Of a DNA stretch of 20,723 bases, positions 14,875 through 18,949 are shown piece after piece (position 1 is the first letter of the stretch; every line of letters starts with the position of its first letter). Made by a program: the position numbers and the translations under genes. The notes beneath the pieces were generated by a model, which had not been told where the DNA came from, searched no databases, and saw only the letters and a list, made by a program, of their open reading frames with translations. Origin of the DNA: a virus; UHGV virus genome UHGV-0278151; one strand, written 5' to 3'.

Positions 14875-15261
14875 TCAGCGTTTCAACTGAAAGTGAGGCC
14901 CGTCTTTCAGTGTTTTCCAGTCCCCACCCCATTCGATGGCAGTTCCCAGCTCTGCGGCAGCCTGCTTAAATGCCTGCGCGATTTTCTCGTACAGAGGCCA
15001 GTCCCATGACACCTGGCTGCCAATGTAGGCCACAACATCCACCGCATCACCTGTAAGGTGGCGGCTGTTCATGGTCTGGCTTTTCCCTGCCGCTACCAGC
15101 TGTTTCTGGCGATACTTACTGCGCAGACCTTCCGTGATACCAAAATCAACCTCCGTCAGCTCCAGCGCACGGCGAACGACAGCAACCAGCTGTGGTTTGA
15201 CGCCCTCCAGATTTTTTTCACTGCGACGGCTGAATCTGAATTTACCCGGCATCATATTCAC
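14875..15261 (-). CDS. Endolysin, peptidase M15 family (L-alanyl-D-glutamate endopeptidase type)
   Basis: About 128 aa containing NSRHLTGDAVDV and DGPHFQ, which fit the zinc-ligand motifs of M15/VanY-type phage endolysins. It directly follows two membrane-protein genes and overlaps the stop of the upstream one (GTGA/ATG). Confidence 0.8.
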   Translation of the reverse strand: MNMMPGKFRFSRRSEKNLEGVKPQLVAVVRRALELTEVDFGITEGLRSKYRQKQLVAAGKSQTMNSRHLTGDAVDVVAYIGSQVSWDWPLYEKIAQAFKQAAAELGTAIEWGGDWKTLKDGPHFQLKR

Positions 15262-15533
15262 CTCAACAATGGAAAGATTTTTGTGACGTTCCCGCGTGCG
15301 CGTATCACCAGCACGCAGAACAGCAGGTTAAAAAACACTTCCAGCCAGCCCGTTGCTAACGGGCGACCACACAGATAGCTGAGGGGCGCAAAGGCATACA
15401 GCAGCATCAGCAGCCAGGCCAGCCATGACATCAGCGGTTTGTGTCTGGAGTCACGACGACGATAAAAAAAGAGCGTCAGCACGATAACCGTGCATAACGC
15501 CACATTCAGTAATCCGGGAAGGTTACTTAACAT
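15258..15533 (-). CDS. Small multi-pass membrane protein in the lysis cassette (holin or antiholin-like)
   Basis: 91 aa with three hydrophobic segments (LLNVALCTVIVLTLFFY, LMSWLAWLLMLLYAFAPLSYL, WLEVFFNLLFCVLVI). ATG at 15531-15533 overlaps the end of the upstream membrane-protein gene, and the endolysin follows immediately. Confidence 0.6.
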   Translation of the reverse strand: MLSNLPGLLNVALCTVIVLTLFFYRRRDSRHKPLMSWLAWLLMLLYAFAPLSYLCGRPLATGWLEVFFNLLFCVLVIRARGNVTKIFPLLR

Positions 15534-15915
15534 TGCCGCCTCCTCCGCCCCGCAGGCGCGAGAACAGGCCGGACACCAGTGATGCGATATCCTGCTGGTG
15601 GATGAACGACAGAATCTTCACCGACACCACCGCCACCAGCACCGCACACAGTGCATCCGCAGATGTACCGTCATAACCTGTTTTTGATGCAATCCAGGCT
15701 GACAGTACACGCGCCCCCAGTACACCAACAATGAACGACACCAGAAAATGTGCCGCCACACGCCAGGCTGAAATCTTCTGCGGCATCGTTGCCACAAACA
15801 ACGCCCCGGCGAACGCACCAAACACAATCCCGAAATCCGTTCCGGTAAACAGCCCGAATACCGTCGCCCCGCCGAGCGCCGCAGCCGTGCCGGAACCGGA
15901 TAAGGGTTCAGACAT
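15523..15915 (-). CDS. Putative holin (multi-pass membrane protein, first gene of lysis cassette)
   Basis: From ATG at 15913-15915, which has an AGGAG Shine-Dalgarno at 15924-15928, the translation MSEPLSGSGTAAALGGATVFGLFTGTDFGIVFGAFAGALFVATMPQK... has three or four hydrophobic helices and a charged C-terminus. It sits immediately upstream of the endolysin. Confidence 0.6.
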   Translation of the reverse strand: MSEPLSGSGTAAALGGATVFGLFTGTDFGIVFGAFAGALFVATMPQKISAWRVAAHFLVSFIVGVLGARVLSAWIASKTGYDGTSADALCAVLVAVVSVKILSFIHQQDIASLVSGLFSRLRGGGGGNVK

Positions 15916-15931: not shown

Positions 15932-15955
15932 ATAAAAAAGGGCCACCAACGGCCC
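15932..15955 (-). terminator. Intrinsic terminator (minus strand) between TerB-like module and holin
   Basis: GGGCC-ACCAAC-GGCCC hairpin (15940-15955) followed on the minus strand by TTTTTTAT (15932-15939). Confidence 0.6.
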
Positions 15956-16002: not shown

Positions 16003-16155
16003 TTATTCAGATTTACGCAGTAAAGGCCGGAGCACGACCAGCGCCATCGCCACCAGCACACCATCTGCCAGCACCGACATCAGCCGTCCGGTGAAATCCA
16101 CCACCACTACCAGAAACAGCAGGATGGCAGCCAGCACAAGGCGCGCACTTTTCAC
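16003..16155 (-). CDS. Small two-helix membrane protein (about 50 aa), translationally coupled to upstream TerB-like gene
   Basis: GTG at 16153-16155 overlaps the TerB-like stop TGA (GTGA). The translation VKSARLVLAAILLFLVVVVDFTGRLMSVLADGVLVAMALVVLRPLLRKSE has two hydrophobic segments and charged ends. It is too short for the ORF track, which listed only ORFs of 60 aa or more. Confidence 0.45.
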   Translation of the reverse strand: MKSARLVLAAILLFLVVVVDFTGRLMSVLADGVLVAMALVVLRPLLRKSE

Positions 16156-16577
16156 AGGTACTGCTCCAGCGGCAACTGCAACGCCTGTGCAATTTTCTTG
16201 AGCTGCACTTCTTCATCAGGACCGATGCCGTCCTGGTCAGCAATATCCAGACACAGACACAGCACGTTAACTGCATCATCAGTACCGGCAACATCAGCCA
16301 GCTGACGAAGGGCTTCGGCATTGGCAGAACGCGGTGACGCTTCATAACGGGCGCGGATATTTGCACTCATTTGTGCAATCTCACCCGAGAACGGCGCAAA
16401 GGCAGGAAGTGCTGCAATGGTTTTCTCCAGCACAGCGATTTCTTTCGCATCACAGGTGCCGTCGGCGAATGCTATGGAATACGCACCCCAGACGGTCGCC
16501 TCCACTGCATCGCGGTTCTCCATCTTCTTCACTTCGGTAATGGCCTTGCGGGTTTTCTTTTTGAAAATACCAAACAT
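16152..16577 (-). CDS. TerB-like (tellurite-resistance TerB / DjlA N-domain family) protein
   Basis: 141 aa, MFGIFKKKTRKAITEVKKMENRDAVEATVWGAYSIAFADGTCDAKEIAVLEKTIAALP...DDAVNVLCLCLDIADQDGIGPDEEVQLKKIAQALQLPLEQYL. It shows the two-fold repeated pattern typical of TerB domains: a hydrophobic helix, an acidic DG motif, then E-rich and LxxIAxxL segments. Shine-Dalgarno AAGGA lies upstream of the ATG. Confidence 0.55.
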   Translation of the reverse strand: MFGIFKKKTRKAITEVKKMENRDAVEATVWGAYSIAFADGTCDAKEIAVLEKTIAALPAFAPFSGEIAQMSANIRARYEASPRSANAEALRQLADVAGTDDAVNVLCLCLDIADQDGIGPDEEVQLKKIAQALQLPLEQYL

Positions 16578-16902: not shown

Positions 16903-16937
16903 ACACGGGCATTATCAGTGTCCGTGTTTCTTTTTTT
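16903..16937 (+). terminator. Second intrinsic terminator (plus strand)
   Basis: ACACGGGC...GTCCGTGT hairpin (16903-16927) followed by TTCTTTTTTT. Confidence 0.5.
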
Positions 16938-16958
16938 AGGATTCAGAATAAAAAAAAC

Positions 16959-16985
16959 CGCCCGGTGGAGGCGGTAAAGGATGTA
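16959..16985 (-). terminator. Intrinsic terminator (minus strand)
   Basis: ACCGCC-CGGTGGA-GGCGGT hairpin followed on the minus strand by a run of 8 T (plus-strand A-run at 16959-16967). Confidence 0.6.
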
Positions 16986-17242: not shown

Positions 17243-17312
<70 letters not shown>

Positions 17313-17446
17313 TGACGGTTTTATTGCCACATCCGTAACAACAGTCGACAGGAATAATATACATTCAGAATCAGCCGCCTTAGCTAATTGTGCAACCATC
17401 TGCTCTTTGCAAGTGCACTTAACGTCCTGCGCCACTTTTCAGGCAT

Positions 17447-17469
17447 AAAAAAACCCGCTCAGTGGCGGG
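17447..17469 (-). terminator. Strong intrinsic terminator (minus strand)
   Basis: CCCGC-CACTGA-GCGGG hairpin followed by TTTTTTT on the minus strand. It is near-identical to the element at 18171-18195. Confidence 0.7.
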
Positions 17470-17600
17470 ATCTTTTGATAAAAACGACAAAGGCACCATT
17501 AAGGTGCCTTTTACACAGGGGCAGCAGGCTTGTCATCACCTCATCGCTACTCCTGGCTTCCTGTTCGGAAGTCTCACAAGTCCCATCAGGGTACAGCGAC

Positions 17601-17629
17601 AGTATCAGCCAACACACTATGTGTGTCAA
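17601..17629 (-). promoter_or_regulatory. Sigma70-type promoter (TTGACA-17 bp-GATACT) with a 15-bp dyad in the spacer
   Basis: The minus strand reads aTTGACAcacatagtgtgttggctGATACT. The -35 is consensus at 17624-17629, the spacer is 17 bp, and the -10 (17601-17606) matches 4 of 6. The spacer contains the palindrome ACACACATAGTGTGT. Confidence 0.55.
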
Positions 17630-17640
17630 TATAAATTCAT

Positions 17641-17673
17641 ATCGAATTCGATAATCGTTTTCGATTATCGATA
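17641..17673. repeat. Tandem dyad-symmetric sites ATCG-N4-CGAT (x2) plus TATCGATA
   Basis: ATCGAATTCGAT (17641-17652, perfect 12-bp palindrome), ATCGTTTTCGAT (17654-17665) and TATCGATA (17666-17673). They overlap the stop codon of the PemK/MazF-like gene and lie 12 bp upstream of the -35 at 17624-17629. Confidence 0.7.
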
Positions 17674-18066
17674 CAGATAAGCCATCCCTATCCCGTGCAA
17701 TACCGCCCGTTTAATATTCTCAAACTCATCTTCCGCAATCATAGGAACAATATAATTTCGTCCCTCCCAGGTTCTGGTTTTTATGCGATCCAGTCGGCTC
17801 AATGAAACCGTCATCAACATGTCACATTTTACCCAGCAAGTAATATGCTCATTACCAGGTATGGGGTTTTCTGATAACTCATGATGGCAATCTCTGCGAG
17901 GGAGCGGTTCAGTAGTGCTTATTGGTACCACTGTTACCAATTGATTGTTGTGCCTGTTTCTGGACACGACCACCACTGGCCTGACCTTGACTATTTCCGG
18001 AACAACCATTCCCCGAAAATCACACATTAAAACAGAACGAACAGACGGCTGATACTTTAATACCAT
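17665..18066 (-). CDS. PemK/MazF-family-like protein (candidate endoribonuclease toxin), no adjacent antitoxin ORF evident
   Basis: From ATG at 18064-18066 the translation is MVLKYQPSVRSVLMCDFRGMVVPEIVKVRPVVVVSRNRHNNQLVTVVPISTTEPLP...ITCWVKCDMLMTVSLSRL...EDEFENIKRAVLHGIGM. This aligns by motif with Kid/PemK and MazF/EndoA (GDIxxVDF-like strand, VRPxxVV, N..., VxVVPITS, hhxCDQhxTIDxxRL, C-terminal helix). Confidence 0.55.
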   Translation of the reverse strand: MVLKYQPSVRSVLMCDFRGMVVPEIVKVRPVVVVSRNRHNNQLVTVVPISTTEPLPRRDCHHELSENPIPGNEHITCWVKCDMLMTVSLSRLDRIKTRTWEGRNYIVPMIAEDEFENIKRAVLHGIGMAYLYR

Positions 18067-18150
18067 AAATCTCTTTGCCTGATAATGACGACTTGTGAAC
18101 TCCACTACAAACAAAATGATTCTGCTGAACAGGCAGTTTCGCACTATACA

Positions 18151-18156
18151 TTATAA
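18151..18156 (-). promoter_or_regulatory. Consensus -10 hexamer (TATAAT) upstream of PemK/MazF-like gene; no good -35
   Basis: The minus strand reads ggTTATAATgtatagtg, 85 nt upstream of the ATG at 18066 and immediately downstream of the terminator at 18171-18193. Confidence 0.4.
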
Positions 18157-18170
18157 CCTGTTAAGCCAAC

Positions 18171-18193
18171 AAAAAAACCCGCTCGGCGGCGGG
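18171..18193 (-). terminator. Intrinsic terminator (minus strand) between the 229-aa gene and the PemK/MazF-like gene; nin-region tR-like
   Basis: CCCGC-(CGCCGA)-GCGGG hairpin followed by TTTTTTT on the minus strand. It is a direct near-repeat of the 17447-17471 element (23 of 25 bp identical). Confidence 0.65.
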
Positions 18194-18259
18194 ATTTGCT
18201 TACTTTGCCATCGAGTACAAAATCGGCAAAATATCAGATTTGCACGAAATATATGCCTT

Positions 18260-18949
18260 TTAATCTACTTTTGCAACACTTTGCTTTGAAAATGCCGTCT
18301 TTTGTTCTGAACGTGTTCTCATCACAAACAATAAAGCCTCACTATCCAGCCGGTGGAAAATGTGTTTCATTGCAACCCAGTGACCAGTAAATGTTTTGGA
18401 CCAGTTTTTTGTTGTTACTCCCGCCAGTAATGCCAGTTCCTGATATTCATAAGTTTCACGCCCAGCTAGCTCACTCTTCACATCCTGTGCCGCCAGCCAG
18501 ATTAATTTTTTCAGGCGCTCCCGTGTTTTCTCCGCAATTTTTCTGGTACCAGATTGCGCGTTAAATTCATTCCACGCCCACTGTGTTATCGCAATCTGGT
18601 GTTCCCAGCAAATGCTGCCGCTGTAACACCACAGCAACCAGGCTTTATAGTGTTCTTCAAGAGACAGAACCGCCCGTCGCCATGATGATGTCGAAAACTC
18701 AACCTGACTTACCAGAGGAATTGACGTCCTCTTTGCCAGCGATTGTTTCCCCGGGATTGGTGGATTATCCCGCGTTATCATTTTTCCGGTCACTTCATCG
18801 CGGTACCGGATTTTTTTACGCCTGTAACGCCCTGTATCAAACATGGCATTCTCCTGCCAGGCTTCAAGCTGACCTTTTGTTGCCCCACTCAAATCGGCGG
18901 TGGCAATAATGAGCTGCTCACGAACAAACTGTAAATACTGGTTATTCAT
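18260..18949 (-). CDS. nin-region protein immediately downstream of rusA; candidate late-gene antiterminator Q (assignment positional, family not verified)
   Basis: 229 aa from ATG at 18947-18949, which overlaps the rusA stop (ATGA). It occupies the last position of the early-right/nin block before the late control region. I could not recall a confident sequence match to lambda Q or any other Q family. Confidence 0.4.
   Translation of the reverse strand: MNNQYLQFVREQLIIATADLSGATKGQLEAWQENAMFDTGRYRRKKIRYRDEVTGKMITRDNPPIPGKQSLAKRTSIPLVSQVEFSTSSWRRAVLSLEEHYKAWLLWCYSGSICWEHQIAITQWAWNEFNAQSGTRKIAEKTRERLKKLIWLAAQDVKSELAGRETYEYQELALLAGVTTKNWSKTFTGHWVAMKHIFHRLDSEALLFVMRTRSEQKTAFSKQSVAKVD

Follow-up and report, generated by a model that had tools for sequence, protein, structure and literature searches.

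The late-control region of this prophage raises the question of which gene encodes the Q antiterminator and where the late promoter lies. The window, that is, the whole 20,723-nt stretch of viral genome UHGV-0278151, contains an ORF of 229 aa directly after rusA. The original prediction proposed this ORF as a possible Q, saw a terminator but no obvious promoter behind it, placed the best promoter farther downstream, and called the region ambiguous. A conserved promoter at the end of the 229-aa gene settles the layout: with a probability of about 0.9, the region is a standard phage-82-type late-gene switch. The module is of an ordinary, already known kind, and its layout is textbook for the Q82 family. 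The consequence is mainly one of annotation, in that the late promoter, the pause site, and the terminator tR' of the prophage are fixed; the apparent puzzle arose because promoters had been ranked by their consensus scores.

The 3.6 kb from rusA to the holin share 99.7% identity with a prophage of E. coli SE11 (NC_011415.1), and all relevant genes of the late-control region are carried by the minus strand. The RefSeq order in E. coli SE11 is DUF968 protein, RusA, "bacteriophage antitermination protein Q", PemK/MazF-family toxin, TerB-family protein, DUF3927 protein, two holins, and M15 peptidase. The Q gene is the last gene of the nin/rusA region and lies upstream of the lysis genes, and the order DUF968-rusA-Q, followed by holins and endolysin, is also found in phage 82, PhiR47_2, CobraSix, KO-TP1, and Gifsy-1. 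The genes are as follows.

18260..18949, minus strand: Q gene, 229 aa, Q82 family (PF06323, phrog_304, phage 82 Q identity, RefSeq)
15915..15523, minus strand: holin (Pfam, RefSeq); the lysis genes span 14875..15915
15533..15258, minus strand: second holin (Pfam, RefSeq)
15252..14875, minus strand: M15 peptidase endolysin (Pfam, RefSeq)

The Q ORF runs on the minus strand from the ATG at 18949, which overlaps the rusA stop codon (ATGA), to the stop TAA at 18262..18260. A Pfam scan of the 229-aa protein returned PF06323 (Phage_antiter_Q) alone, with E = 1.2e-93 and 313 bits (cutoff 25) over profile positions 1-216 of 220, and neither PF03589 (Q-lambda) nor PF06530 (Q21/933W). PF06323 is the Q82 family, one of three unrelated Q families; Q21 and Q-lambda form an RNA-exit-channel nozzle (PMC9388147). 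The protein also matches phrog_304 'anti-termination protein Q-like' with E = 1e-107, and phage 82 Q aligns with it over 229/229 aa, with zero gaps and 77% identity. A search of 5.8 billion proteins yielded 2762 homologues, with PF06323 present in 120/120 of those listed. A PDB sequence search with Q gave no significant match, and the AlphaFold2 model (41 sequences) has a mean pLDDT of 58 and no Foldseek match in the PDB better than E = 0.7. Family membership and identity mark the 229-aa protein as an ordinary Q antiterminator of the phage-82 type, as had been suspected, and its RefSeq annotation as Q is correct. E. coli K-12 DLP12 QuuD was dropped as a comparator, with 127 aa compared with 225-229 aa for the compared Q82-type proteins.

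A promoter is located exactly where the original prediction had seen none. Specifically, TTGCAA-17-TATATT (18276..18248) overlaps the Q stop codon, with the -35 hexamer inside the last Q codons, and is followed by a leader whose elements are listed here.

18271..18276, minus strand: pR' -35 TTGCAA, inside the last Q codons (promoter scan)
18254..18270, minus strand: 17-nt spacer with the Q stop codon; predicted Q-binding element (QBE) site (placement after PMC4914094)
18248..18253, minus strand: pR' -10 TATATT (scan, and conserved in relatives)
18241, minus strand: inferred +1, first A of AAATC, 7 nt after the -10 hexamer
18216..18236, minus strand: predicted sigma70-dependent pause element (match to published 82 pR' features)
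18171..18193, minus strand: tR' (T1), hairpin CCCGC-N6-GCGGG at +49..+64, then seven T (terminator scan)

In the promoter scan, pR' matches 9/12 consensus positions and scores below a downstream promoter at a cassette junction, which matches 10/12. Promoter-like matches are not enriched in the region (9 vs 5.9 +/- 2.9 in shuffles), so that consensus score alone cannot pick the real promoter; conservation does. Phage 82 Q ends in the same ATTGCAAAACTGGATTAA as the window Q, and the -35 block TTGCAAAA is invariant in the Escherichia, Enterobacter, Klebsiella, and Salmonella relatives. In 7/7 relatives with Q identity of 59-77%, TTGCAAAA, the -10 hexamer, and TG(C/T)AAATCTGATAT are invariant, while the leader elsewhere diverges; the core TTGCAAAA..TATATT..TGYAAATCTGATAT is unchanged across four genera over the same range of Q identity. 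The Q82-type signature has a single site in the window, at 18231-18244, and a single copy of TGYAAATCTGATAT, matching with 0 mismatches, is present. Judged from this conservation, TTGCAA-17-TATATT at the Q 3' end is the conserved late promoter of the Q82 family. Rfam IsrJ and IsrK matches also start here, at 18244 and 18243, and being weak (19-21 bits, under the gathering scores) they served as a lead only.

The leader was compared with 82 pR' through the verbal description in PMC5001585 and through the phage-82-like PhiR47_2 as sequence proxy, which is one of the seven relatives and whose Q has 98% DNA identity to phage 82 Q. In 82 pR', the pause-inducing -10-like element, with its extended -10 motif, is near consensus, GCC is located at +15-17, an AT-rich tract lies ahead of the pause, and the pause occurs at +25/+26, with U at +25 (PMC5001585). 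The window leader from +1 = 18241 reads AAATCTGATATTTTGCCGATTTTGTA. Specifically, TG is at +6/+7 and TATTTT at +9..+14, forming the extended -10-like TGaTATTTT (+6..+14), followed by GCC at +15-17, ATTTT at +19..+23, and T at +25; T/A at +25/+26 is the predicted pause site. Given +1 at 18241, which puts GCC and T at their published positions, all published 82 pR' pause features are present in the window sequence. The QBE of 82 pR' sits between the -35 and -10 elements, within -31..+30 (PMC4914094). By analogy, we infer that the QBE of the window is at 18270..18254; these spacer columns are partly conserved among relatives.

The terminator predicted soon after Q is present. Its hairpin (18193..18178) is short, with 5 G-C pairs and an energy of about -8 to -11 kcal/mol, and the T-run ends at 18171, which corresponds to +71, ~70 nt downstream of the late promoter start. 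From its place in the leader, this terminator ~65 nt after Q is tR', the predicted first target of Q. Wherever the contig reaches that far, the homology of the window with 80 viral loci whose Q is at least 89% identical ends at 18169-18172, directly past the tR' T-run, with the exception of L001, L004, and L007, which share the downstream DNA of the window. Beyond tR', the DNA varies from locus to locus among the related viral loci. Because homology ends right after tR', the Q gene, pR', and tR' are taken to be inherited as one module, and the site after tR' is, as this comparison indicates, where accessory DNA accumulates.

The link between signature and Q family was surveyed in both directions. 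Starting from Q, the relaxed motif TTGCA-N34-38-[TA]GATA[TC] is found at the Q end in 66/69 loci (one-genome-per-species GTDB contigs, ~30 genera, Q identity 33-92%) and in 0/~1380 random control segments; two of the three loci without it have one-base variants. Starting from the motif, a blind scan of viral contigs with TTGCAAAA-N24-TGYAAATCTGATAT gave 80 loci, and a Q82-family gene lies upstream in 80/80. At 76/80 loci, the motif and the 3' end of Q overlap. The remaining 4/80 are Gifsy-1-like, with the isrK-orf45-anrP moron between Q and the signature promoter (IsrJ). Separation of the late promoter from Q by a moron, which had been suggested for the window, does therefore occur in the Q82 family, in each case in this arrangement; in the window, pR' overlaps the Q 3' end. 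Of the 81 motif-bearing sequences (80 viral loci plus the window), 74 have a strict terminator with its end at +65..+84, and the others mostly have a hairpin with a shorter T-run. TTGCAAAA-N24-TGYAAATCTGATAT is a reliable annotation marker for Q82-type late promoters across Enterobacterales.

Compared with phage 82 (PMC5001585, PMC4914094), the window has the same protein family, the same -35 block TTGCAAAA at the Q 3' end, the same -10 TATATT (seen in the proxy PhiR47_2), and the same initial transcribed sequence AAATCTGATATTTTGCC; GCC at +15-17 and T at +25 are shared as well and are followed in both by a short terminated leader. Other than that, the leader diverges past +17 (GATTTTGTACTCG vs AATGTTGTACGCA), and the terminator hairpin sequence differs. 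The holin of PhiR47_2 is located ~310 bp after Q, whereas in the window the Q module and the holin are ~2.3 kb apart, separated by accessory and relic DNA that contains four further terminators.

Gifsy-1 antQ (PMC4825925) belongs to the same Q82 family, with 66% identity to the window Q. Its IsrJ promoter and leader contain TTGCAAAA-N24-TGTAAATCTGATAT, followed by a terminator, and Gifsy-1 also has a moron in the late leader region. The arrangement is different: isrK-orf45-anrP comes between antQ and the signature promoter (IsrJ), which follows antQ at a distance of ~840 bp, and the IsrK promoter directly after antQ is without the pause signature, whereas the signature promoter of the window is right at the Q end, with the moron after tR'. 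In the Gifsy-1 locus (L090, NC_010392.1), the signature is found at ~1760-1900 (IsrJ, after anrP) and not at ~940-1090 (IsrK); IsrK has TTGACA-17-TATATT, with AAAATCTGGCGTCG where the -10-like pause element would be. Judged from these elements, IsrJ may be the true Q-responsive late leader of Gifsy-1.

The lambda system follows the same logic, in which transcription from a constitutive promoter pauses close to it in a sigma70-dependent manner and gives a short terminated RNA unless Q allows readthrough; lambda pR' reads TTGACT-17-TAAATT-N6-AACGATGGG. In contrast, the window Q is outside the lambda family (PF06323 only), the pause element is at +9..+14 (about +2..+7 in lambda), and the leader has ~71 nt compared with ~194 nt in lambda.

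The proposed mechanism follows the one established for phage 82, and for the window it rests on the identity of the cis-element sequences and on protein family membership. Sigma70 RNA polymerase would start at pR' (+1 at ~18241), in the promoter that overlaps the Q 3' end. Without Q, polymerase would pause at ~+25/+26 through sigma70 rebinding to the extended -10-like element and would then terminate at tR' (+49..+71), yielding an RNA of ~71 nt comparable to lambda 6S RNA or IsrJ. Q made from the early rightward operon would bind its site in the promoter and load onto the paused complex, and the Q-loaded polymerase would be termination-resistant, reading through tR' and the later terminators T2, T3, T4, and T5 and continuing into the holin, endolysin, and structural genes. 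Thus Q binding, pausing, and terminator readthrough are predicted for this prophage.

Terminator-like sites are enriched in the region (17 vs 5.9 +/- 2.2 in shuffles), and five coding-strand terminators (T1-T5), with hairpin energies of about -10.6 to -16 kcal/mol, precede the holin. The four that the original prediction counted are confirmed, with ends near 18171, 17447, 16949, and 15932; a fifth, T2, was missed. The terminators and the other features between tR' and the holin are as follows.

18193..18178, minus strand: T1 hairpin (tR'; terminator scan)
18116..18170, minus strand: resident spacer after tR', 55 nt (in 33/5426 E. coli genomes, with or without the PemK cassette)
17622..18115, minus strand: PemK/MazF-like cassette, 497 bp including one flanking CAT copy (comparison with the empty site)
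18066..17665, minus strand: PemK/MazF-like ORF, 133 aa (PF02452, PHROG, RefSeq)
17601..17629, minus strand: junction promoter TTGACA-17-GATACT (promoter scan, empty-site comparison)
17445..17591, minus strand: relic 3' part of a lambda-type late leader, with T2 and T3 (E. coli E9 L083 homology)
17511..17489, minus strand: T2 (terminator scan)
17469..17454, minus strand: T3 hairpin; T-run ends at 17447 (terminator scan)
17254..17311, minus strand: truncated chimeric tRNA relic, 3' part of tRNA-Gly UCC (Rfam tRNA)
16949..16975, minus strand: T4, hairpin 16975..16957, end at 16949 (terminator scan)
16003..16577, minus strand: TerB-family and DUF3927 moron genes (Pfam, RefSeq)
15932..15955, minus strand: T5, hairpin 15955..15940, end at 15932, directly upstream of the holin (terminator scan)

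As originally predicted, expression of the lysis genes should depend on antitermination, given the several terminators that polymerase would have to pass on its way from the late promoter to the holin; the arrangement of these elements makes such a dependence reasonable.

T2 and T3 belong to DNA of a different late-control type. Specifically, window 17591..17445 has 95% identity with positions 2501-2673 of an E. coli E9 locus (L083), where the homologous segment is the 3' two-thirds of the leader after a 273-aa PF03589 (Q-lambda family) Q. The E. coli E9 leader starts at a lambda-like pR', TTGATT-16-TAAATT-N6-AACGATGGG. A search allowing 3 mismatches did not find the lambda-type TAAATT-N6-AACGATGGG promoter/pause motif in the window, and no Q-lambda-family gene is seen in the examined part of the window. 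Segment 17591..17445 is a relic, most likely of a lambda-type module whose place was taken by a Q82-type one. Two nearly alike terminator copies, 18169..18195 and 17445..17471 (minus strand, ATCCCGCC..GAGCGGGTTTTTTT), bracket an extra 725 bp. Copy 1 (18195..18169) shares 93% identity over 27 nt with the E. coli E9 terminator, and the lambda-type leader of E. coli E9 ends in the same hairpin. In some relatives, the Q82-type tR' is directly joined to the sequence that follows copy 2 (17445..17471) in the window. The shared tR' hairpin may act as a homology patch for module exchange.

The tRNA relic scores 48.5 bits with Rfam over model positions 8-63 only, the 5' acceptor strand being missing, and ARAGORN called no tRNA in the region. 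Its 3' part matches tRNA-Gly(UCC) of related prophages, while its D-arm region resembles their tRNA-Arg or tRNA-Lys. Related loci have intact tRNA arrays at the corresponding place, some also with a DNA methyltransferase; the window has no methyltransferase or intact tRNA genes in the stretch between tR' and the holin. The TerB/DUF3927 moron sits between T4 and T5, directly upstream of the holin. The history of the tR'-holin DNA, as shown by comparison, comprises a PemK/MazF-like insertion, a lambda-type leader remnant probably left by exchange of Q modules, a truncated tRNA, and the TerB/DUF3927 moron, and in content this DNA is accessory and decayed. After an exchange of Q modules, terminators of a different Q family can stay behind, and the resident Q still has to override these.

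The relic leader and the truncated tRNA could indicate that the prophage is partly defective. If it were cryptic, the module would be intact in sequence but the switch would no longer drive lysis, a reading that fits the decay between tR' and the holin and the want of methyltransferase and intact tRNA genes where relatives carry them. We consider it unlikely: the Q ORF is full length and gap-free compared with phage 82 Q, all cis elements are intact, and holins, endolysin, terminase, and large structural ORFs are present in the window. It would also leave the identities of the elements unchanged and bear only on their present use.

The predicted PemK/MazF-like gene is present downstream (18066..17665), and the suggested moron insertion downstream of Q is borne out. 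The 133-aa protein matches PF02452 with E = 7.6e-14 and 52 bits (cutoff 23), consistent with a PemK/MazF toxin domain, and also phrog_15698 and phrog_1936 'MazF-like growth inhibitor'. The 497-bp cassette contains the 133-aa ORF only and none for an antitoxin, the RefSeq annotation shows no neighbouring antitoxin, and the PemK-like gene has no match in PADLOC or NCBIfam. No match to the cassette DNA was found in the phage collection; in the phage database, the PemK-like protein is matched by 11 Vibrio phage-like records only, with ~37% identity. The cassette is flanked by a 3-bp CAT repeat, and a perfect 9-bp inverted repeat, CGATAATCG-AAAA-CGATTATCG, directly follows the PemK-like stop codon. 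The same Q-type module and, after tR', the same 55-nt spacer are present in E. coli S19-651 (L082), which lacks a PemK gene, and alignment with this locus defines window 18115..17622 plus one CAT copy as an insertion. Among 5426 complete E. coli genomes, 33 have the site, which is empty in 10 (L082 and 9 others) and filled in 23.

The resident spacer contains a perfect TATAAT at 18155..18150 (minus strand), 16 nt past the tR' T-run, with only a T-rich sequence at the -35 position. Transcription of the PemK-like gene in the lysogen could start from it. We also considered that it might mark a third late-promoter type; the TATAAT is without an acceptable -35, and no more than 33 E. coli genomes have the segment. 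At each locus examined (L001, L082, L084, L085), the segment follows a Q82-type module.

The downstream promoter singled out earlier as the best does exist as a promoter-like site, TTGACA-17-GATACT, and terminators do follow it; it is very unlikely to be the late promoter, as no Q82-type signature accompanies it and one half of it belongs to the cassette. Specifically, the -35 TTGACA (17629..17624) is in the cassette and the -10 GATACT (17606..17601) in resident DNA, and in the empty site both hexamers abut without a spacer (TTGACTGATACT), which makes this promoter a junction product. It is quite improbable, though conceivable, that the TTGACA, which faces outward from the cassette, and the resident GATACT form a constitutive promoter transcribing the relic leader (~17594..17447) into a ~115-150-nt RNA with an acquired function. 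Such an RNA could be a partner restraining the antitoxin-less MazF-like protein, or a trans-acting regulator like StxS or IsrK, which are also derived from terminated late leaders. Very unlikely is that 17629..17601 is the real late promoter, with Q acting across the PemK cassette. In its favour, its consensus score is the highest in the region, and a short leader with two terminators follows, but the Q82-type signature is found only at pR', and its -35 lies in a cassette that 10/33 site-bearing genomes lack. In addition, its leader comes from the 3' portion of a lambda-type leader, the promoter and AACGATGGG pause element of which the window lacks, and the examined part of the window shows no Q of the corresponding family. 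With pR' at the Q 3' end, action of Q at a distance is not needed.

Finally, it is hardly credible that another protein, for example the DUF968/HNH-like one encoded upstream of rusA, antiterminates while the 229-aa protein is a non-regulatory nin-region protein and Q lies elsewhere: we found no supporting point, the DUF968 protein matches only DUF968 and weakly HNH in Pfam, and the 229-aa protein has a full-length PF06323 match and 77% identity to phage 82 Q, which has been studied experimentally, so that no other antiterminator is needed.

The late leader region also contains a strong terminator-like hairpin on the plus strand (16903..16937), with 11 pairs and a T-run. It adjoins small unannotated ORFs and may mark the end of an antisense transcript.
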